Source of the DNA: Candidatus Danuiimicrobium aquiferis
GTDB taxonomy: Bacteria > Omnitrophota > Omnitrophia > Omnitrophales > Danuiimicrobiaceae
Reading direction: 5' to 3'
Assembly (NCBI GenBank): GCA_001804285.1
Contig: MHFR01000037.1
Span: 19,552 to 83,551, forward strand
DNA: 64,000 bases
Shown piece by piece: positions 10,209 to 57,255 of the stretch; the first letter of the stretch is position 1; each line of letters starts with the position of its first letter. A program made the position numbers and the translations under genes. The notes under the pieces are model-generated. The model had not been told where the DNA came from. It searched no databases and was given only the letters and a program-made list of their open reading frames with translations.

Positions 10209-10683
10209 AGCTCTTTATACAGGCAGTTTCGATCCCGTAACGTACGGACATATCGATCTCATTAATCGAGCGTTGAAGATCTTTGACGAAATCCATGTCG
10301 GAATCGCAATTAATATCGATAAAAGCCCTTACTTTTCTCTTGAAGAGCGACTTGATTTTTTGCGGTCTTCAGTCGGAAAAAACCCTAAAATAAAAATCGA
10401 GGCATTCAAAGGGTTGAGTGTAGCGTACGCCAGGGAAAAGGGGATTCGAAACATTATTCGCGGAGTCAGGGTCACTTCGGATTTTGATTATGAGTTTCAG
10501 ATGGCCCTCACAAACCGCCAGCTTGCGCCGGATGTGGAAACCGTATTCCTGATGCCGTCTGAAAAACATTTTTATTTGTCTTCGCGATTGATCAAAGAAA
10601 TCGCATTCTCGGGCGGCAAAATTTCTTCGTTCGTTCCGCCGATTGTGAAAAATGCGTTCCGGAATCGGCTCAGCAGAAAATAA
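10186..10683 (+). CDS. coaD: phosphopantetheine adenylyltransferase
   Basis: 165 aa. GSFDPVTYGHIDLI (T/HxGH nucleotidyltransferase motif). Overlaps the rsmD 3' end by 23 nt. Confidence 0.9.
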   Translation: MAVKKGNKALYTGSFDPVTYGHIDLINRALKIFDEIHVGIAINIDKSPYFSLEERLDFLRSSVGKNPKIKIEAFKGLSVAYAREKGIRNIIRGVRVTSDFDYEFQMALTNRQLAPDVETVFLMPSEKHFYLSSRLIKEIAFSGGKISSFVPPIVKNAFRNRLSRK

Positions 10684-11163: not shown

Positions 11164-11370
11164 GTGGCACATCCAAAAAGAAGACATTCAAATATGCGGA
11201 GCCGCCTTCGGCGGACGCACGACACTCTAAAACTAAACTCGCTCTCAAAGTGTTCGAATTGTGGACATACAATGATGTCCCATAGAATCTGTCCCAAGTG
11301 CGGATTTTATAAAGGAAAGCAAGTCATTACAATCAAAACCAAAGACAAAAAAAATTCGGACAACTCATGA
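11164..11370 (+). CDS. rpmF: 50S ribosomal protein L32
   Basis: GTG start at 11164 gives VAHPKRRHSNMRSRLRR..., the canonical L32 N-terminus, plus a CxxC...CxxC ribbon. A GGAAAGGAAGGAAA RBS lies upstream. The ORF track extends to an upstream ATG at 11140. Confidence 0.85.
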   Translation: MAHPKRRHSNMRSRLRRTHDTLKLNSLSKCSNCGHTMMSHRICPKCGFYKGKQVITIKTKDKKNSDNS

Positions 11371-36399: not shown

Positions 36400-37770
36400 A
36401 TGGGAATGTGGGCAACGATTTTAGTCGTCGATGACGAAAAAAATACACGGGAAGGAATCAAACCGATTCTTGAGTCATGGGATTACGACGTTGTCCTTGC
36501 GGAAAACGGAAAGGCGGCACTTGAACTCATGAAGGAAGATTGCCCGGATATTGTTTTGGCCGATCTAAAAATGCCGGAAATGGACGGCATTGAATTATTA
36601 AATACAGTCAAACGCAAATACCCGCAGGTTATCTTCATTGTCCTCACCGCCTACGGCACGGTTCAAACCGCCGTTAGCGCCATGCAAGACGGTGCCTATT
36701 ACTATTTGACCAAACCGGTTAATTTTGAAGAGCTGGAATTAATTCTTAAAAAAGCGCTCCACCAAAGATCTATAGAACAAGAAAATGTAAATCTCCGCGC
36801 AGAGCTCATGCAAGAACGGCATGAAGCAGGCGAAATCATCGGGAATTCAGAGACGATTAAGAAAGCCATCTCAACGGCAAACCAAGTTGCACAAACTGAC
36901 TCGACGGTTTTAATCCAGGGCGAAAGCGGAACCGGAAAAGAACTGTTTGCCCATTTAATCCATTTTGGAAGCTCCCGCAGAAATCAACCGCTGATCACTG
37001 TCCACATGGCCGCGCTTACGGAGACTTTACTCGCCAGCGAACTTTTTGGACATGAAAAAGGGGCATTCACCGGGGCAACCGAACGCCGAGTCGGTCGTTT
37101 TGAACGTGCAAACGGGGGAACGCTCTTCCTCGATGAAATATCGGAAATTCCGGAAGGCATGCAGACAAAGCTCTTGCGCGTCCTTCAGGACGGCCTGTTT
37201 GAACGGGTCGGGGGAACAAAAACGATCAAAACGGATGTTCGTTTGATTTGTGCCACCAACAAAAATTTAAAGGACGAGGTCACAAAAGGGAAGTTTCGCG
37301 AAGACTTATATTATCGGATCAATGTTATTTTGCTTGAAATTCCGCCGCTGCGCAACCGCCGATCGGATATTTCGCTTCTGGTAGATCATTTTCTAAATTA
37401 TTTTACACGAATTAACCGGAAAAATATCGATGGAATAACCCCGGAAGCAAGCCAGGCGCTCAAGCAATATTCATGGCCTGGAAATATCCGTGAATTAAAA
37501 AACGTGATGGAACGCGCCGTCGTTCTTGGAAACAACGGAACGATCGGCCTTGAACAATTTCCGGACGACATCAGGCACAATCAACCCATCCGTATAGAAT
37601 CCGACGCAACAACCACGAAATCAGTCGAATCGATTCGCGGAATGGAAGATCAAATGATCAGGAAGGCTCTCAAGCAATCCGGCGGAAACAAAAGTATCAC
37701 GGCCAAACGTCTCGGAATTTCCCGCAGAACGCTTTACAGGAAAATAGAAGAATATAAAATTTCCGACTAA
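36400..37770 (+). CDS. sigma-54-dependent response regulator (NtrC family: REC + AAA+ + Fis-type HTH)
   Basis: 456 aa. REC domain (ILVVDDE...D...KMPEMDG), Walker A GESGTGKE, the GAFTGA sigma54-contact motif, and a C-terminal HTH. Confidence 0.9.
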
Positions 37771-37772
37771 CC

Positions 37773-37965
37773 CGGTTATTCTCATCGTTTTTTTCACTCG
37801 CTGAGAATAACCGCTTTGGACAATATGGACGTGCTGTCCAAAGTTTTGCGCGCATAGACAAAACAGCGCGCAAAAGATAAGCCCTTTTGCGAAAGCAATT
37901 TAAATGATTTCCGCAAAAGCTCTTTGAGCGCATTTCTCATCCCTAAAGATGAGAAATGCGGGCTA
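37773..37965 (+). repeat. family-A composite structured repeat (at least 5 hairpins, divergent full-length copy)
   Basis: H1 CGGTTATTCTCA..TGAGAATAACCG. H2 CTTTGGACA..TGTCCAAAG. H3 TTTTGCGCGC..GCGCGCAAAA followed by ATAAGCCC. H4 TTTTGCG..CGCAAAA. H5 GCATTTCTCAT..ATGAGAAATGC followed by GGGCTA. Module order and spacing match copy 47128-47316, but the stem sequences differ by compensatory changes. Confidence 0.7.
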
Positions 37966-38159
37966 ATACTGGCACGCCAGTGTATCGATATGGCCCACTG
38001 CACATATCTTATCAATAAGTTTTTTGATGGACATTGCAAGTCGTTTCTTAATAACAAGTTATACTAGCAATAAAATCAATTGTTTGGCACGGAAATTGAT
38101 GTACTGAAGATAGAAATTGAAATCATTTACAACAATTTAATAAAAACAGGAGAATTAAA

Positions 38160-42062: not shown

Positions 42063-42093
42063 TTAAACCGGCTTTACCATAGGCTCATGCTAA

Positions 42094-42165
42094 CCCGCCT
42101 TTCTCATCGATTTTGTAAATCGACGAGAAAGGCGCTTCGGGCATAATCAGTTGCGCCCAAAGTTT
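42094..42165 (+). repeat. family-A repeat, partial copy (H1+H2 modules)
   Basis: CCCGCCTTTCTCATCGATTTTGTAAATCGACGAGAAAGGCGCTTCGGGCATAATCAGTTGCGCCCAAAGTTT. Relative to 47128 it shows a compensatory GAC..GTC to GCC..GGC swap in the H1 stem. Confidence 0.65.
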
Positions 42166-46097: not shown

Positions 46098-47115
46098 GCG
46101 CAAGGGGGTCCTTATTTTTTCCCACGTTTTTTACTTCGTTACATTCTGCGCATTTTTCACAACCACATCCGGCCTTAACCGGGACGGAAATAAACTTTAC
46201 CAGGAAAAACGTTATGAATCGGCATTAAAAAATTACAGGGAAGCACAAGTTCGAAATCCAGACCAGGCCGAGACGCAATACAATCTTGGAACCGCTCTTT
46301 ACCAAACGGATCAATTTCAAGAAGCCGATGAGCACTTCAAAAAATCCATCGAACTGATGAAAGATAAAGACGACAAGGCAAAGGCCTGGTATAACTACGG
46401 AAATTCTCAATATCGCCTGGGCCAATTCGAAAAAGCGATTGACGCCTATAAACACGCGCTTGATTTAAATCCGGCCGATCAGGACGCCAAATACAATATA
46501 GAGTTGCTTCAAAAGAAAAAAAACATGTTTGACATCAAACAAAAAAACCGGGATGAAAAGAAAAACGAGCAAAACCAAAACCAACAAAAACAAAACCAGC
46601 AACAAAGTAAACAACAGCAAAGCCAGAATCAACAACAGAACCAGCAGCAACAGCAGCAGAACCAACAAAACCAGCAGAACGAGCAACAACAGCAGCAAAA
46701 CAAGCAGAACCAAGAACAAAATCAAAAACAGAATCAACAGGATCAACAAAACAAAGAACAACAAAAACAAGATCAGCAGAACCAACAACAAAAAGAGCAG
46801 AATGAACAACAGCAGCCCGATCAAGGCGAAGAAGAACAAAATCAGCAGCAAAAAGAACAGGCAGAAAAAGAGCAGCAACCAAAAGAACAACGAGAACAAG
46901 AAACACCGGCCGCGCCACAGCCCGATCAATCACAAAATCAACAAGGCGGCAAACCTGAGGAGCAACAACAAAAACAGTTATATCAGGGGCAAATGTCCCG
47001 CGAAGATGCGGAAAGAATTCTAAATGCCCTCAAAGATACCGAGCAGGAGTTGCAAAGCATCGTACGCCGCCCCCAGGAAAAATTCCCGGACCACAACCCA
47101 GAAAAAGATTGGTAG
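46090..47115 (+). CDS. batC: TPR-repeat protein BatC-like with a roughly 150-aa Gln/Asn/Glu/Lys-rich low-complexity insert
   Basis: 341 aa. A signal/TM segment, three TPR units (aa 30-140), a Q/N-rich tract, and a short conserved C-terminal segment. Confidence 0.7.
   Translation: MHKRKGVLIFSHVFYFVTFCAFFTTTSGLNRDGNKLYQEKRYESALKNYREAQVRNPDQAETQYNLGTALYQTDQFQEADEHFKKSIELMKDKDDKAKAWYNYGNSQYRLGQFEKAIDAYKHALDLNPADQDAKYNIELLQKKKNMFDIKQKNRDEKKNEQNQNQQKQNQQQSKQQQSQNQQQNQQQQQQNQQNQQNEQQQQQNKQNQEQNQKQNQQDQQNKEQQKQDQQNQQQKEQNEQQQPDQGEEEQNQQQKEQAEKEQQPKEQREQETPAAPQPDQSQNQQGGKPEEQQQKQLYQGQMSREDAERILNALKDTEQELQSIVRRPQEKFPDHNPEKDW
46540..46960 (+). repeat. cryptic simple-sequence region (CAA/CAG/AAC codon repeats) inside batC
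   Basis: For about 420 nt the + strand is composed almost exclusively of A and C, with few G and almost no T. The antisense frames give poly-Leu artefact ORFs. Confidence 0.8.
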
Positions 47116-47127
47116 CAATCATTTAAA

Positions 47128-47316
47128 ATAACTTTAACCCGACTTTCTCATTGATTTTGTGAATCGACGAGAAAGTCGCTTTGGGCGCAATCAGTTAAGC
47201 CCAAAGTTTTGCGCCCTTGTTAATTTGGGGCGCAAAAGATAAGCCCTGCGTCGCAAAGATGAATACCCTCTTTGCACCGCAGCTCTTACGAGCGGAATTT
47301 CTCATTAACAATGAGA
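47128..47316 (+). repeat. family-A composite structured repeat, full-length copy (left arm of a roughly 190-bp inverted pair)
   Basis: CCCGACTTTCTCAT-CGATTTTGTGAATCG-ACGAGAAAGTCG, CTTTGGGC..GCCCAAAG, TTTTGCGCCC..GGGCGCAAAAG-ATAAGCCC, ..., GGAATTTCTCAT..ATGAGAAATCCGGGCT. The reverse complement of 50621-50819 is more than 90% identical over about 190 bp. The element ends about 30 nt before the yqeY ATG. Confidence 0.85.
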
Positions 47317-47345
47317 AATCCGGGCTAAATATTCAGGAGCATCCC

Positions 47346-47792
47346 ATGACACTGACAGAACAGCTTGCAGAAGATCTTAAAACCGCTATGAAACAAAAGG
47401 AAGAAGTCCGGCTATCAACCATCCGGATGCTTAAAGCCGCCATGCAGATGAAAGCCATCGAAAAGAAGGTGAAAGCGCTTGCCGACGAAGAAGTCCTCGA
47501 TGTTATTCAAAAACAAGTCAAACAGCGGAAAGACTCAATCGCCGAATATGATAAGGGAAACCGGCGGGATTTAGCAGAAAAAGAACAAAAAGAAATCGAT
47601 GTTCTCATCACTTATTTGCCAAAACAGCTCTCCAAAGATGAATTAAAACAAATCGTACAAGGAGCGATCACCGTCACAGGAGCGACCACTAAAGCCGATA
47701 TCGGCAAATTAATGAAAGAAATCATGCCTAAAGTCAAAGGAAAAGCCGACGGGAAAGAGGTCAATCAGCTAATCAGCGAGCTCTTGCCGTAG
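47346..47792 (+). CDS. yqeY: GatB/YqeY domain protein
   Basis: ATG at 47346 (MTLTEQLAEDLKTAMK...) with AGGAG at 47334-47338. The ORF track's 47217 start would read through the repeat. Confidence 0.7.
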   Translation: MTLTEQLAEDLKTAMKQKEEVRLSTIRMLKAAMQMKAIEKKVKALADEEVLDVIQKQVKQRKDSIAEYDKGNRRDLAEKEQKEIDVLITYLPKQLSKDELKQIVQGAITVTGATTKADIGKLMKEIMPKVKGKADGKEVNQLISELLP

Positions 47793-47815
47793 AAAGCTTG
47801 CAAACAGATTATAAT

Positions 47816-47843
47816 TGTTTACATAACATATATTATAGGACGT
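47816..47843 (-). other. dif: candidate dif site (XerC/XerD chromosome dimer resolution site) at the gene-orientation switch point
   Basis: The reverse complement of 47816-47843 is ACGTCCTATAA-TATATG-TTATGTAAACA. The B. subtilis dif is ACTTCCTAGAA-TATATA-TTATGTAAACT. That is 24 of 28 identical, with 10 of 11 in the XerD arm. It lies in the 69-nt convergent intergenic region where coding strand polarity flips from + to -. Confidence 0.5.
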
Positions 47844-47861
47844 TATTGACAGCATTAAAAA

Positions 47862-48350
47862 CTACTTCTTTCTTCTAAATACGTCGATCTTCAACGAAGA
47901 TACCCGATCAAGAAATAAGATTCCGTTTAAGTGATCAACTTCGTGTTGAATACACACAGCTTCAAGCCCATCGGTTTCTATTCGGTTGACTTTCATGTCA
48001 AGGTCAAACCATTCTACTTTAATGGTATTCGCTCGCCTGACATTGGCCGTAAAATCCGGAATACTCATACATCCCTCCCGAAAGATTCGAAAATCCGATT
48101 CGGCGGTAATTACAGGGTTAATCATCACAAGCTGGGCTTTCCCTTGGATTTTCCGTGAGACATCGATAATGATCACGCACTTAAGAACGCCTACTTGCGG
48201 CGCAGCAATACCGATACCGCCTGGCTGCTGATGCATGATTTCGTCTAAATCTTTAATAAACGTTCTAAACTCGGCATCAATACGTTGAACCGGCTCAGAT
48301 ATTTTTTTAAGAATCGGGTCCGGATATGTGTAAATATGATATGGCTTCAT
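47862..48350 (-). CDS. def: peptide deformylase (second copy)
   Basis: 162 aa with all three PDF motifs: GIGIAAPQ, EGCMSIP, QHEVDHLNG. Confidence 0.9.
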   Translation of the reverse strand: MKPYHIYTYPDPILKKISEPVQRIDAEFRTFIKDLDEIMHQQPGGIGIAAPQVGVLKCVIIIDVSRKIQGKAQLVMINPVITAESDFRIFREGCMSIPDFTANVRRANTIKVEWFDLDMKVNRIETDGLEAVCIQHEVDHLNGILFLDRVSSLKIDVFRRKK

Positions 48351-48908
48351 TTAAAGGCGCGCTGTTTCAAGTGGTTTAAACGACACATCCACTTTCAATT
48401 TCTTCTTTATTTGATCGATTTTTTTCTCAACTGTTCGAATCCTTGCATTTTGAGGGGCATCAACCTCCAAAATAAGCGCATAAATTGAATTTTTTCCGGA
48501 TCCCGCAATGTTGGAATTCAAATCGGTAATATTCAACCCCTCATCCGCTAAAACCTTGGAAACTTGATAAACAATACCCGCGTGATCCCTTCCATAGACC
48601 GAAAGAATGTACGGAACCGAACCTTTTAGATGCTTTTCACCGCGTGTCAATCGCCGCTTTATCGGTCTTATTTGAATGCTCAAAGCCAATGTTTTTTTGA
48701 TTCGCTCAATTGAAGCAACAAACTTTCGGTAACCGGAAGCACTGCCGATTTCCGCCAAAAGAATCATGGCAAACTCCCCTTCCAAAATCGTCATATTGGC
48801 ATCTTCCAGATTGCCACCGCATTTAAAAATTGCGCCCGTAAACGCTGCGATAATTCCCGGCTGATCCTTCCCTGTAATCGTCATCAATAATTTCATGGAA
48901 CCCCTCAC
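48351..48908 (-). CDS. tandem ACT-domain protein (GcvR-like)
   Basis: 185 aa with two ACT-like repeats (MTITGKDQPGIIAAFTGAIF... and LSVYGRDHAGIVYQVSKVLA...). Abuts the def2 start and overlaps the cca stop by 4 nt. Confidence 0.65.
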   Translation of the reverse strand: MRGSMKLLMTITGKDQPGIIAAFTGAIFKCGGNLEDANMTILEGEFAMILLAEIGSASGYRKFVASIERIKKTLALSIQIRPIKRRLTRGEKHLKGSVPYILSVYGRDHAGIVYQVSKVLADEGLNITDLNSNIAGSGKNSIYALILEVDAPQNARIRTVEKKIDQIKKKLKVDVSFKPLETARL

Positions 48909-50227
48909 TGGTTAATCAGTTTTTCCTTTACGTACAAAATGGCATCCTCTTTCGATTTGAATTTCAATTCGAGCTGAAGTTCATAAATCGCATTTAAGAT
49001 TTCTTTCATTATCGGGCCTTCCGAAACCCCTAACGCCATCAGATCATGGCCGTTGATAATACATTTCGGCTTTAAATCTTCTTTCTTGAATTCTTCTCGT
49101 TTCTGAATCAAAAAATAATAATTATCAAGCGAACCGTGGCTCGCCAGGCAATCTGCCCGATGAAGTTCCAGTTCCATTTCAAAGGTTTCTTTGCCGATCA
49201 ACTGTTTCAGTTTCCCGATCCTCATTTCTTTCACATCCCCATAACGCATGTGATTCCCGATCGCCCATGTAATCCGATCAATTTCCTGATTCGAAAAGCG
49301 GAGCCGGGTTAACGCTTCCCGCGCAATGTCAGCCCCCACCGCGGCATGATTATAAAAATGGATATCGCCCGTTTCCGTTCGCCCGAAAGTACCGGGCTTA
49401 CCGACATCATGAAAAATCGCAGAAAAAGCCAACTCAACCGAAACCGGCTGCTTCAATTGATCCAACATGAGTTTGGTATGGACAAAAACATCGCCTTCCG
49501 GATGATACGCTTCCGGTTGTTTGACACCCTTTAGCGCTTCGATTTCTGGTAAAACCTCTGCAAGCAAACCGCTTTCTGACAGCAAAACAAGCCCCTTCCC
49601 CGCTCCCGGCCGAGTAAACATTTTAACGAGTTCATCGCGGATCCGTTCCTGGCTGACCCTGTGAATGCTTGTCCGGTTACGAATCATCGCAGCCCATGTT
49701 GCTGCCTCAATTTCAAAATTCAAATTTGCCGCAAACCGGATCGCGCGTAAAATCCGGAGATGATCTTCCTCAAAGCGCTCCTGCGGATTTCCGATCGTAC
49801 GGATAACTTTCTTTTCAATATCCATTTGCCCGGAAACGAAATCGATCATTCGGCGATTCATCGGATCGTAAAACAATCCATTGATCGCGAAATCCCGCCT
49901 TTTCGCATCTTCTTCGGGCGAAGAAAAAGACACTGACTCGGGATGGCGGCCATCCACATACTTCGCATCAGAGCGGAACGTGGTCACTTCAAATTGATAC
50001 CCCTCCAGGACAACAATTTCGACACCGAATTTTTTCCCGACAGAAATACATTTCGGGAACATCGCTTCAATGTCATCCGGAAGCGCACTGGTCGCAATAT
50101 CATAATCTTTGGGCGTATTTCCCATAATCAAATCCCGGACATATCCGCCGGCAAAAAACGCCACAAATCCGGCGGCTTTCAGCTTTTCAATAATTTGAAT
50201 TGCGATTTTTTCTGCCTGTTCAGCCAT
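48905..50227 (-). CDS. cca: CCA tRNA nucleotidyltransferase (pol-beta-like NTase head + HD domain)
   Basis: 440 aa. GGYVRDLIMG...DYDIAT NTase motif, ...RRDFAING..., and a C-terminal HD domain (HDVGK...HH...D). Confidence 0.85.
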   Translation of the reverse strand: MAEQAEKIAIQIIEKLKAAGFVAFFAGGYVRDLIMGNTPKDYDIATSALPDDIEAMFPKCISVGKKFGVEIVVLEGYQFEVTTFRSDAKYVDGRHPESVSFSSPEEDAKRRDFAINGLFYDPMNRRMIDFVSGQMDIEKKVIRTIGNPQERFEEDHLRILRAIRFAANLNFEIEAATWAAMIRNRTSIHRVSQERIRDELVKMFTRPGAGKGLVLLSESGLLAEVLPEIEALKGVKQPEAYHPEGDVFVHTKLMLDQLKQPVSVELAFSAIFHDVGKPGTFGRTETGDIHFYNHAAVGADIAREALTRLRFSNQEIDRITWAIGNHMRYGDVKEMRIGKLKQLIGKETFEMELELHRADCLASHGSLDNYYFLIQKREEFKKEDLKPKCIINGHDLMALGVSEGPIMKEILNAIYELQLELKFKSKEDAILYVKEKLINQ

Positions 50228-50240
50228 AAAAGATTCCCAA

Positions 50241-50291
50241 TACCCCTCACCCTATCCCTCTCCCCGTGGGAGAGGGATAGGGTGAGGGGTA
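50241..50291 (-). repeat. family-C GC-rich perfect hairpin (24-25-bp stem, 3-nt loop)
   Basis: TACCCCTCACCCTATCCCTCTCCC-cgt-GGGAGAGGGATAGGGTGAGGGGTA, located between the acyP stop (50331) and the cca start (50227). A related copy lies at 57841-57896. Confidence 0.8.
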
Positions 50292-50330
50292 TCTGTTAAT
50301 CACTTCAAAACGCTAAATAATTACTTCCAA

Positions 50331-50603
50331 TTAACGGACTGAAAACGTTACAAAATTCTGCTGTGGCTCTTCAACCGTAATCGCCACATCATCCACTTGC
50401 GCACCCGGCGGTCCGGAATGACACCATTTGACTAATCGCGCAATATAGGCTTCTTCGCCTTGCGCCACAATCTCAACCTTTCCATCGGGTAAATTTCGCG
50501 CAAAACCAACTAATTTCAGGCTTCTTGCGTTCTCTGCGGCCGAAGCGCGATAAAACACCCCTTGAACTCTTCCGGAAATCAACAAATTGACCTGTTTAAT
50601 CAT
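50331..50603 (-). CDS. acyP: acylphosphatase
   Basis: 90 aa with VQGVFYR...GFARN acylphosphatase signatures. Confidence 0.85.
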   Translation of the reverse strand: MIKQVNLLISGRVQGVFYRASAAENARSLKLVGFARNLPDGKVEIVAQGEEAYIARLVKWCHSGPPGAQVDDVAITVEEPQQNFVTFSVR

Positions 50604-50620
50604 GATCCCCTATCGCCCTC

Positions 50621-50819
50621 AGCCCGGATTTCTCATTCTGAATAAGAAATTCCGCTCGTAAGAGCTGCGGCGCAAAGATGGTCCGTATGTTTGCGACGCA
50701 GGGCTTATCTTTTGCGCCCTGATTTAACAAGGGCGCAAAACTTTGGGCGTAACTTATTGCGCCCAAAGCGACTTTCTCGTCGATTCACAAAATCGATGAG
50801 AAAGTCGGGTTAGGACTCA
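50621..50819 (-). repeat. family-A composite structured repeat, full-length copy (right arm, inverted)
   Basis: The reverse complement aligns base-for-base with 47128-47316 (same five hairpin modules, ATAAGCCC and GGGCT landmarks). Its 3' end, in the transcribed sense, lies about 18 nt upstream of the acyP ATG. Its 5' end overlaps the last 11 codons of the MFS gene. Confidence 0.85.
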
Positions 50820-51996
50820 TATTCTTGCTTAGTTTACGGATAAACCAAAAGCCGGTCAAACTCAAAAATGCGGTGGCAAGAATAAGCCAATTCAAGCCAA
50901 TGCCTTCATAGAGCATTCCGCCTGCCGAACGGAAAATAGCCTGGCTTAGATTATAGATACTTGAAATCATGGCAAATAATGACCCTTCGACACCGGTTCC
51001 GTGTGATAACTTTGCCGCCAAGGACATGAATGGCAGCAAACTGATATAACCCAAAATACCGCCAATCACAGATAAAACACCTGCCGACACTCTGCCCCGG
51101 ATAGCAAAAACGAGAAGCACGTCAACAAAGGTAATCATAACTGCCCAATATAGCGCCGTTTGGTCTTTCATGGTTTTAAAAAACCGCGCATAAAACAAAC
51201 AGCCGATAATCGCCCCAAGCCACGTTAAACTTTGAAGGAGCCCGAGAAAAAACTCATTAAACCTGAGCTGGTCCTTCATGTAAAAAAAGAATGGCGTTCC
51301 AATCGCTACCGGCAGCGCTGAAACGGCAAAAAGCAGCATGAACCATAGAATCTTGCGTTGAAATAAATATTTGAAACTTGTAAAAACCGCCTCTGCAATT
51401 TTTTCTTTTCGCGATCGTGCATCGGAAGGCTGTTCGTGAATAAAAAATGAAACCACAAATGAAATCATGGGCAAAAACCCGGTTAATAGGAAAACGGTCC
51501 GGTATCCAACCTTCACCGTCAAATACCCACCCGTCACACCCGCGAGTAAAGCGCCTATGCTTCGGGCACCCCACGATATGCTTTGATACGTCTGGGCGGT
51601 ACTTTTATCCGAATATTCCACAACTAAACCATCCGTGATCACATCTGTGGCGGCGAGCCCTAAATTGGCAAGTGTCAACGCAAAAATCACCGTCACGTCT
51701 TGAGCTTGTCCAACCGCCAGCAAAAACCATCCGGCAGCCGAAAAAAGTGAACAAATAATTAAATACGGTTTTCTCCTCAGTCCGAAAATCGGAATCCCGT
51801 CACTGATGATTCCATAGAGGATTTTAACAAACCACGGCCATGTCGTCAGCGATGTGATCCATGCAATTTTTGAAATACTGTAACCGTTTTCACGCATGAA
51901 TAGCGGCAGTGCAATAGCGGAAAGACCGAGGGCTCCCTGGATAAAATACACGACAAAGGCAAGGCTTCCAACATTCTTATTGATACGTTCTTTCAT
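50785..51996 (-). CDS. MFS-type transporter (12 TM; folate/biopterin-transporter-like)
   Basis: 403 aa of polytopic membrane protein with an MFS-like 6+6 arrangement. Confidence 0.6.
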   Translation of the reverse strand: MKERINKNVGSLAFVVYFIQGALGLSAIALPLFMRENGYSISKIAWITSLTTWPWFVKILYGIISDGIPIFGLRRKPYLIICSLFSAAGWFLLAVGQAQDVTVIFALTLANLGLAATDVITDGLVVEYSDKSTAQTYQSISWGARSIGALLAGVTGGYLTVKVGYRTVFLLTGFLPMISFVVSFFIHEQPSDARSRKEKIAEAVFTSFKYLFQRKILWFMLLFAVSALPVAIGTPFFFYMKDQLRFNEFFLGLLQSLTWLGAIIGCLFYARFFKTMKDQTALYWAVMITFVDVLLVFAIRGRVSAGVLSVIGGILGYISLLPFMSLAAKLSHGTGVEGSLFAMISSIYNLSQAIFRSAGGMLYEGIGLNWLILATAFLSLTGFWFIRKLSKNMSPNPTFSSIL

Positions 51997-54913: not shown

Positions 54914-55372
54914 GATTATCAACCACTCTTTCTGTAATTCCGTGTAATTCCCCGCATCCGCCGGAGCAGTCGCAATCCTGAGATTCATCCAGCCATGGAA
55001 TTGAATCTTTACCGGAATCAATATTCAAAATGTCAAAATTGAACAGGCCTATTATCAAGGCCTGCAAAGATCGCCACGAAGTTTCACGCTTCTGTGACGT
55101 TGTGTGGCAAGAGAATAAACAATGCGGCATCGAATTCGTCAATAGAACACGAAAGATGTCTCTGGCTATGGAATGGACACTTTGAATAATTGATTGGACC
55201 TGCTCGCAAAGGCGAGTAAATACAATGCTAATAAATAGTTTAAACTTTAAAATTTTTTCACCTAAAATGCTTGCGAATCCGCTTAAATCAACGTCAATTA
55301 TGTGCGAATTCAAAAAACTAATCTTGTCAAAAACCTTCAAAATCATAAATAAAAAACCATTTTGCGTTTCTC

Positions 55373-55481
55373 TGTCATTCCCGCAATCTTCCCTCGGTAA
55401 ATCGAGGGCCGGCCCTGTATTTCCAGGGTAGGCGGGAATCTCTGAATCGTAGATGCCCGACATAAGCATTCGGGCATGACA
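55373..55481 (-). repeat. family-B repeat, expanded copy with a nested GGGCCGGCCC core
   Basis: CTGTCATTCCCGC-[CCCTCG..CGAGGGCCGGCCCTG..CAGGG]-GCGGGAAT ... GATGCCCGA..TCGGGCATGACA. It lies in the roughly 670-nt region upstream of rng. Confidence 0.7.
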
Positions 55482-57207: not shown

Positions 57208-57255
57208 CTGTCATTCCCGCCTGAAGCTTGCGGGAATGACAGAAATTCGCAGAAC
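57208..57255 (-). repeat. family-B repeat, minimal copy
   Basis: CTGTCATTCCCGC-ctgaagctt-GCGGGAATGACAG-AAATTCGCAGAAC. The 3' tail CAGAAA.YCGCAGAAC is shared with the copy ending at 60521. Confidence 0.7.

Follow-up and report, generated by a model that had tools for sequence, protein, structure and literature searches.

Several described systems come close to the repeat treated here, a 194-nt element termed family A, two copies of which form an inverted pair around a dif-like site in a 64,000-nt stretch of DNA (the window) of Candidatus Danuiimicrobium aquiferis, a bacterium of the phylum Omnitrophota (contig MHFR01000037.1, positions 19,552 to 83,551). Palindrome-associated transposable elements (PATEs) derive from IS200/IS605 but encode no protein; one description of them, together with ISGst elements, comes from Geobacillus stearothermophilus (PMC10055086). 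IS200/IS605 elements insert 3' of a transposon-adjacent motif (TAM), and a similar motif (TEM) marks their right boundary (PMC10055086). REP/BIME and REPIN elements are mobilised by RAYT (TnpA-REP) transposases of the Y1 type (PMC3333891). Finally, some miniature inverted-repeat transposable elements (MITEs) reside in operons and fold into long RNA hairpins; these include Correia/NEMIS in Neisseria, ERIC/IRU in enterobacteria, and RUP and BOX in the pneumococcus (PMC2229807, PMC3049150).

The inverted pair was noticed in an initial annotation made from the sequence alone, which offered two readings of it. Long inverted repeats on either side of a terminus might serve RecA-mediated inversion and so reorient dif, or an element that is always oriented with transcription might simply lie where transcription polarity flips. 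The analysis reported here favours the latter: the two arms are very probably independent insertions of a dispersed, non-coding mobile repeat of about 194 nt, whose orientation follows a gene polarity that flips at dif. Family A is apparently an undescribed, highly structured mobile repeat in Omnitrophota, a phylum known almost only from metagenomes. No description of it was found in Rfam or in the searchable literature, and a search of the literature on Omnitrophica and MITEs gave none either.

The inverted pair at the replication terminus

A repeat search places the arms at 47135-47326 (+) and 50621-50812 (-), 192 nt in length, 92% complementary and 3294 nt apart. By blastn they are 91.7% identical over 192 nt (E=1.6e-76). 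A direct count gives 176 matching positions of the 192, leaving 16 mismatches, and the longest uninterrupted match is 39 nt. The reported pair of about 190 bp and more than 90% identity is confirmed. When the flanking TAA and CTAA are included, a covariance model delimits two full elements of 194 nt, neither of which contains an open reading frame (ORF; coordinates in Table 1). The left arm had been placed at 47128-47316; the arm is real, while the ends given for it were about 7-12 nt off. It lies between the stop of the TPR gene (47115) and the start of yqeY (47337), begins with TAA, ends with CTAA, and has an RNA fold of -88 kcal/mol (z=-8.9). The right arm has CTGA at its 3' end, and its insertion point is an out-of-frame TAA situated six codons ahead of the ancestral stop of the MFS transporter gene.

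Loci outside the window are metagenome contig loci from related groundwater metagenomes, numbered L001-L073. Three other Omnitrophota lineages (L069/L070, L071/L072 and L073), reached via cca homologues of 63-65% identity, served for comparison, and it was through conservation among these relatives that the dif-like site was found. Its full sequence, ACGTCCTATAATATATGTTATGTAAA, occurs once in the window, where none is expected by chance. In four lineages it is the sole conserved block of the yqeY/def spacer, the rest of which is unalignable; in the relatives it reads ACGTCC[T/G]ATAATGTATCTTATGTAAAG (L069 at about 10400-10525, L071 at about 10385-10496 and L073 at about 10379-10517). The candidate can be written as an 11-6-11 architecture, GTCCTATAA-TATATG-TTATGTAAA, the right arm of which resembles E. 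coli TTATGTTAAAT; the whole E. coli dif site, with up to 3 mismatches, has no match in the window. Long ORFs lie on the plus strand up to dif (47.8 kb) and on the minus strand after it, the only exceptions being two short minus-strand ORFs upstream, and the GC skew changes at about 46-48 kb. The dif candidate of the initial annotation therefore holds: being unique in the window, conserved in the same gap of three other lineages and located at the strand switch, it marks the region as the replication terminus. Judged by conservation and position, it is a convincing dif site, at which gene polarity flips.

Gene order and orientation around dif are the same in the window and in all three relative lineages. 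The order shared by the relatives is secretin - RNase E/G - ... - MFS - acyP - cca - ACT - def >< yqeY - TPR - BatB - BatA - ... - DUF58 - MoxR, and the covariance model finds no match to family A in their loci (L069-L073). Where the window carries copies, the relatives have tight junctions: MFS and acyP overlap by 4 nt, and the distances are 18-28 nt for TPR/yqeY, 7-10 nt for BatA/BatB and 0-8 nt for MoxR/DUF58. The elements were also deleted in silico. Removal of the right arm (191 nt after TAA) leaves an MFS frame that ends in ...SPKGDRGS and whose TGA overlaps the acyP ATG by 4 nt (ATGA), as in the relatives. Removal of the left arm leaves a spacer of 30 nt, and removal of a mini form of the element reduces the BatA/BatB gap from 48 to 8 nt.

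The right arm has also altered a protein. The last 8 codons of the MFS gene (NPTFSSIL) and its stop, 28 nt in all, lie inside the arm, which has replaced six ancestral residues by eight element-encoded ones; the protein has 403 aa in the window and 390 aa in the relatives. The initial annotation was thus right that the element donates the C-terminus of the transporter, although alignment with the relatives and the reconstruction give 8 aa rather than the 11 proposed.

The two arms are 91.2% identical to each other, while the right arm is 97.4% identical to the copy in L012 and the left arm 93.8% identical to those in L051 and L054. Since the best match of either arm is a copy at some other locus and not the opposite arm, they derive from different source copies and show no exchange of sequence. 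The comparison thus supports independently inserted copies with no recombination footprint, which the initial annotation had named as the finding that would speak against inversion.

Pfam supports the gene content proposed for the segment, namely yqeY on the plus strand and def, ACT, cca and acyP on the minus strand, with a TPR protein (+) as the outer neighbour on the left and an MFS/BT1 transporter (-) on the right. It also supports the claim that no transposase or integrase is present, as no such domain is found in the enclosed or adjacent genes. A composite transposon, or a mobile five-gene cassette bounded by inverted repeats, has the discrete gene set between the repeats in its favour. 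However, the 194-nt arms have no coding capacity, and the genes are housekeeping genes that are conserved beside dif in distant relatives lacking the arms. This explanation has next to no probability, in agreement with the initial annotation, which had doubted a composite transposon. Judged by synteny, the five bracketed genes are an ancestral, conserved terminus neighbourhood and not a mobile cassette or a switch.

The inverted arrangement of the arms follows from the orientation of the family as a whole. All five copies in the window are sense to their neighbours. In a set of about 50 copies, placement between co-directional genes is sense in 18 cases and antisense in 2 (p=4e-4), and the upstream gene is on the same strand in 31 cases and on the opposite strand in 11. 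With dif at 47.83 kb, the genes to its left and right are directed towards it. Sense copies at the TPR/yqeY and MFS/acyP junctions, in genes converging on dif, are consequently inverted relative to each other. It is this bias, with the strand switch at dif, that bears out the reading in which the element is oriented with transcription. The top strand of all five window copies is also the lagging-strand template on both sides of dif, a property inseparable from gene orientation; the GC skew is too asymmetric to orient loci outside the window. Setting copy orientation against local gene majority and GC skew shows that both the transcription and the replication explanation have exceptions. The bias may arise from strand-specific insertion, from selection against antisense copies, whose strand carries a hairpin followed by the T-rich run CTTATCTTTT that was flagged as terminator-like, or from both.

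An invertible terminus segment would be a different matter. Here, RecA would flip the 3.3 kb, so that dif would be turned round and displaced by about 2.3 kb, and the polymorphism would be a regulated or recurrent one. The length and similarity of the arms, with their perfect runs, are enough for rare homologous recombination, and an inversion symmetric about dif would keep genes co-oriented with replication and so be tolerated. However, a single arrangement is seen. The window organism is represented by five contigs from five separate samples (L001-L005), which across their overlaps with 44-54 kb show 100% identity to the window and run collinear with it; two of them (L001 and L003) span both arms, and every contig spanning an arm has the window arrangement. 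The three divergent lineages have the same orientation, the arms have not homogenised each other, and Pfam finds no recombinase nearby. Where the initial annotation had suggested looking for both orientations in relatives, only that of the window is encountered, and its proposal of a RecA-mediated inversion that reorients dif is not upheld.

Three contigs (L002, L004 and L005) end inside the arms, and one metagenome locus (L046 1-1744) joins the flanks of two copies via the shared element (compare L014 1654-2658 and L026 6704-7641). Either the assembly is chimeric in the latter case, or dispersed copies did recombine. Such breaks and hybrids might be taken as signs that copies recombine, but they are typical of short-read assembly at long multi-copy repeats. 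Because family A is a multi-copy repeat longer than the assembler k-mer, both are to be expected and give no evidence of inversion. A rare RecA-mediated inversion is possible, and nothing observed requires one; a regulated or recurrent switch is very unlikely.

Copies and fold of family A

The pair is not unique: blastn and the covariance model add three more members of the same family in the window. The model (R1), built from 43 aligned copies and run unfiltered, finds exactly five: three full copies, one fragment and the mini form. The third full copy represents a divergent subfamily, A2; it is 67-69% identical to the arms, yet compensatory changes preserve the five hairpins in the same arrangement. 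The TAA of this copy doubles as the stop codon of the upstream gene (36400-37770). In the mini form both termini are fused as one hairpin, and its TAA is the stop codon of BatA. All five copies fall in 37.7-50.8 kb, the 13 kb adjoining the terminus, with none in the remaining 51 kb, and four of the five occupy junctions of the MoxR-DUF58-BatA-BatB-TPR operon.

Beyond the window, a strict pattern of the central part of the element retrieves 59 further loci in JGI/ENA metagenome contigs, and the covariance model then recovers at least 50 full-length copies. The contig sets carrying family A are Ga0155201, Ga0156235 and Ga0247727. Two prefix-sharing sets, apparently genome bins, contribute about 17-19 loci each and have 44% G+C, like the window; a third, with 47% G+C, has a divergent subfamily only. 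The nearest named homologue of this last lineage, at 45% identity, is in Candidatus Omnitrophica, which makes for a weak assignment. The cca protein of the window itself bears the NCBI name Omnitrophica bacterium RIFCSPLOWO2_12_FULL_44_17. In a set of one genome per species of the Genome Taxonomy Database (GTDB), the element pattern has 0 matches, and cca has only distant ones (31-47% identity, in Bryobacterales, Bdellovibrionales and other metagenome-assembled genomes) and no close relative. The pattern is likewise absent from viral contigs, phage records and plasmids.

As a single strand, family A is predicted to fold into three hairpins in a row; after them, a closing helix (AGCCC/GGGCU) surrounds a three-way junction, the members of which are a long hairpin, a 4-bp hairpin and the terminal hairpin. 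Full copies have fold energies of -83 to -94 kcal/mol (z from -7.5 to -9.3). Covariation supports the five hairpins of the element. In 50 model-aligned copies, 96% of cells hold standard pairs, compared with 34-49% when the partners are slid by 1-3 columns. Changes on both sides occur at 19 of the 64 pairs (167 cells in total), and none of 500 shuffles reaches the observed count of both-sided cells or the covariation score. A separate RNAalifold run on a MAFFT alignment gives 14 compensated pairs.

The outermost hairpins, both supported by covariation, are close to the element boundaries: hairpin 1 is separated from the 5' boundary by 4-5 nt, and 7 nt lie between hairpin 5 and the 3' boundary. 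In the 43-copy alignment they have the palindromic stem TTTCTCAT/ATGAGAAA in common, and for that reason the ends of the element form an imperfect 31-nt inverted repeat (77%). No GTAG occurs at the hairpin feet in this alignment, where the 5' end reads TAACCCG.

Such a fold raises the question of whether family A is primarily a functional RNA, either a processing, stabilising or regulatory module internal to operons or a multicopy small RNA, with its spread secondary and its sense orientation reflecting a function in the transcript. The very strong covariation, which includes the three-way junction, the sense bias within operons and the position exactly after stop codons would all fit. However, mismatches in the stems do not favour one strand. 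G-U occurs 73 times and A-C 55 times, and after subtraction of one inherited pair the counts are 52 and 54; such equal frequencies give no sign of selection on one RNA strand after insertion. The neighbouring genes are functionally unrelated, and the orthologous junctions of relatives function without copies. Truncated, nested and interrupted copies are common. Rfam 15 has no match in the window at gathering thresholds, and a search with the element at E up to 10 gives only noise (best E=0.56, to eukaryotic miRNA and snoRNA models). A primary role as structured RNA is therefore quite improbable.

Some ORF calls start or lie inside elements, namely a TTG start at 47217 that extends yqeY (47217-47792) and an 87-aa minus-strand ORF at 37794-38057. 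They are likely artefacts, able to mislead automatic annotation.

Junctions, target and mobility

The boundaries of family A are highly regular. TAA stands at the start of all 53 copies examined and is never replaced by TTA in the element frame; the base before it is C 44 times (83% CTAA), T 7 times and G twice. At the other end, CTAA is found in 49 of the 53, and the next base is unconstrained. The element thus reads TAACCCG...CGGGCTAA. Its sites are mainly tight junctions between operon genes, and the gene upstream uses the 5' TAA as its own stop codon in 10 of 31 cases.

An unfilled site is available in a paralogous sequence. A hairpin of a second repeat family ('B') in L026 reads CCCCTCCCCC-TAA-CCCTCTCCCC, with a single CTAAC, and L048 and L061 carry the element at exactly that point. 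As the uninterrupted paralogue has one TAA only, the inserted unit is 191 nt plus one TAA. TAA on both sides, present in 49-53 of the 53 copies, would as far as the junctions tell be equally compatible with a 3-bp duplication and with an element that has CTAA as its own end and inserts 3' of (C)TAA.

The first of these possibilities describes a classical MITE moved by a DDE transposase of the IS5/IS1031 or PIF/Harbinger type, with short terminal inverted repeats (CCCGnnTTTCTCAT), a 3-bp TAA duplication, and hairpins that are incidental or serve RNA stability. Besides the TAA on both sides and the single TAA at the unfilled site, the 31-nt inverted repeat at the ends and the mini forms that retain just the two ends agree with it, and in size, copy number and placement between genes family A resembles the usual bacterial MITE (PMC2229807). 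However, a symmetric transposase predicts TTA about half the time outside stop codons, and none is observed in 53 copies. A flank that is always TAA, a non-palindromic target, argues against a symmetric cut-and-paste enzyme and favours a fixed polarity. What looks like a terminal inverted repeat probably stems from the likeness of two palindromic hairpins. Moreover, the internal hairpins are all kept by compensatory change between subfamilies, for which a DDE MITE has no need, and no DDE gene with these ends was seen in about 530 kb of loci. A DDE transposase with target duplication fits less well than a strand-specific mechanism, and is considered unlikely.

The strictly asymmetric target instead suggests a single-strand mechanism similar to that of IS200/IS605. 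The element would move by recognition of its ends. Given the fixed TAA, the mechanism may be strand-specific as in IS200/IS605 elements and PATEs, where a Y1/HUH transposase places the DNA 3' of a short motif. A more far-reaching version makes family A a protein-less member of an undescribed HUH or RNA-guided transposon lineage, whose (C)TAA target would home to stop codons. Its 3' three-way junction, which ends exactly at the boundary, would then be a guide-RNA-like scaffold reading into flanking DNA, comparable to the omega and right-end RNAs of TnpB and IscB. By analogy with these systems the idea is conceivable, but it is given a low probability.

Copies are found inside one another. An inverted A2 copy sits in the TAA of the hairpin-5 loop of an A1 copy (L009 8172-8570, L029 3223-3620 and L031 1272-1500). 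A 290-nt composite with an internal foreign insert of 96 nt occurs at five loci with different flanks, which is consistent with mobilisation through the element ends. The insert, CCCTTGCGCCACTCTCAAACG...GTCAAACCTG, has the same internal position in all five (after AAGCCCTG), and partial matches to it lie outside family A copies (L018 5949-6000 and L045 5741-5784). Two readings of it are open to choice: a small mobile element, the third here, or part of a composite subfamily of 290 nt whose members spread whole.

Three other kinds of element were considered and set aside. Integron attC sites do not match, as the ends of family A are direct (CTAA...CTAA) and not the inverted RYYYAAC/GTTRRRY. For an element of the IS110/bridge-RNA type, the flanks past CTAA are unrelated between copies. 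Polar sites similar to Ter or KOPS are a poor match to a 194-nt, dispersed repeat that follows gene orientation.

Several points weigh against independent insertion of a mobile repeat. Firstly, the sites without the element belong to distantly related lineages (cca 63-65%) or to the paralogous hairpin, and none to the same species; a flank-joining search for same-species empty sites gave that 'B' hairpin as its sole match. Secondly, the contigs of the window organism are all identical consensus assemblies, in which a minority inverted isoform would be invisible. Thirdly, a full-length copy in L037 (4755-4947) is antisense within nine same-strand genes, and this exception means that neither strict strand-specific insertion nor strict selection is absolute. 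Fourthly, the pattern used for collecting loci fixed hairpin 3 and the linker AAAAGATAAGCCC, where conservation is by construction. Fifthly, neither a transposase nor an autonomous element sharing the ends of family A was found in about 530 kb of loci, where left and right ends are never paired at a distance like that of an insertion sequence and no ORF is multi-copy, and it is the distribution of the copies that argues for mobility. Finally, the left-end hairpin of IS608 is spaced about 19 nt from the boundary, unlike the 4-5 nt of family A.

Neighbouring features and known systems

Table 1. Features at and around the inverted pair and in related loci (window positions unless a locus is named)
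Feature	Position	Strand	Basis
Left arm, full-length family A, subfamily A1	47135..47328	+	Covariance model, 221 bits, E=8e-68
Right arm, full-length family A, subfamily A1	50619..50812	-	Covariance model, 221.6 bits; fold z=-9.3
Third full-length copy, divergent subfamily A2	37768..37966	+	blastn; model 147 bits; fold z=-7.5
3'-truncated copy, hairpins 1 and 2 only	42091..42165	+	MoxR/DUF58 junction; model 71.8 bits; repeat search
Mini form of about 40 nt, TAA-CCCGGATTTCTCA...TGAGAAACCCGGGA-TAA	45030..45072	+	BatA/BatB junction; model 14.2 bits, E=0.006
YqeY	47337-47792	+	Pfam
dif-like XerC/D site, ACGTCCTATAA-TATATG-TTATGTAAA	47818..47843	-	Convergent yqeY/def gap
Pep_deformylase (def)	47862-48350	-	Pfam
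ACT protein, two ACT domains	48351-48908	-	Pfam
cca, PolyA_pol/HD CCA-adding enzyme	48905-50227	-	Pfam
Acylphosphatase (acyP)	50331-50603	-	Pfam
Bracketed gene block, yqeY(+), def(-), ACT(-), cca(-), acyP(-)	47337..50603		Pfam; conserved synteny
MFS/BT1 transporter gene	50785..51996	-	Pfam; alignment with relatives
96-nt insert in family A copies	L018 5578-5673; L021 853-948; L025 11280-11374; L044 3452-3547; L063 3086-3181		

Other small repeats accompany family A (Table 1 gives the features discussed above). The cca/acyP gap, about 5 nt in relatives, is filled by a perfect palindrome at 50240-50292 with 25-nt arms (ATACCCCTCACCCTATCCCTCTCCC and GGGAGAGGGATAGGGTGAGGGGTAT). This is a member of the 'B' hairpin family, seen also in L026, L048 and L061, and its central TAA is a family A target. 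A 41-nt inverted repeat of 78% identity (55360-55400 and 57214-57254) has the core GCGGGAATGACAG, which is also found beside a family A copy in L054 (about 11330-11350) and probably belongs to another small repeat family. Within the TPR gene of the Bat operon, a 9-nt-periodic CAG/CAA/AAC tract (46552-46913) encodes a long, low-complexity region rich in Q and N in the C-terminal half of the protein.

The inverted repeat around dif is best regarded as a by-product of a dispersed repeat that follows gene polarity rather than a terminus switch, and the question as posed matters little. The conserved def/dif/yqeY arrangement, on the other hand, offers a practical terminus marker for Omnitrophota genomes. 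The repeat family is of moderate interest for its strong structure and its asymmetric, stop-codon-adjacent target in a little-known phylum. It splits translationally coupled genes and rewrites the C-terminus of a protein. It also breaks short-read assemblies and may create chimeric contigs. The asymmetric TAA/CTAA junction makes the choice between HUH single-strand and DDE mobilisation directly testable.

MITEs of the IS5 family and of the PIF/Harbinger (Tourist) type have 3-bp TNA/TWA duplications, with TAA and TTA found either way, and ends that typically start with GG or GA. Family A also has TAA on both sides; unlike these elements, it has only TAA, and its ends are CCCG...CGGGC. The operon-resident Correia, ERIC, RUP and BOX elements are, like family A, non-coding, intergenic and co-transcribed, with a length of 100-200 nt and TA-containing targets, and they are able to alter gene ends and to act as substrates for rearrangement. 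Genuine terminal inverted repeats, a symmetric duplication of TA and insertion either way round characterise those elements. Family A shows no sequence similarity to them, and differs in its asymmetric TAA/CTAA junction, strong sense bias and multi-branch fold.

With REP, BIME and REPIN elements, family A shares intergenic hairpin arrays, compensatory changes in the stems, dozens of copies, a frequent location in operons and presumably a relation to HUH enzymes. In contrast to REP, it lacks a GTAG/GTGG tetranucleotide at the hairpin foot, and no RAYT gene was seen. It is also a fixed, ordered unit of 194 nt with five different hairpins, whereas REP sequences are single or doublet units of 20-40 nt.

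The likeness to PATEs is of another kind. Family A contains no ORF, has hairpins by both ends on the same strand, and occurs in many copies per genome. It inserts in fixed orientation 3' of CTAA (a 'TAM'), and its own 3' boundary is CTAA (a 'TEM'). In the window, to the left and right of dif alike, the top strand of the copies lies on the lagging-strand template, a placement that goes with their gene orientation. Unlike in PATEs, where the two motifs differ at one or two positions, they are identical in family A. The position of the left hairpin near the boundary, the three extra conserved internal hairpins and the exceptions to the strand bias also set it apart, and no TnpA, TnpB or IscB was found with it in the 64 kb of the window and about 530 kb of loci. 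Neither the HEARO RNAs nor any further Rfam family resemble it. By analogy, family A would be closest in logic to the IS200/IS605-derived PATEs and to REP/REPIN elements, and closest in ecology to the operon-resident MITEs, as a candidate member only.

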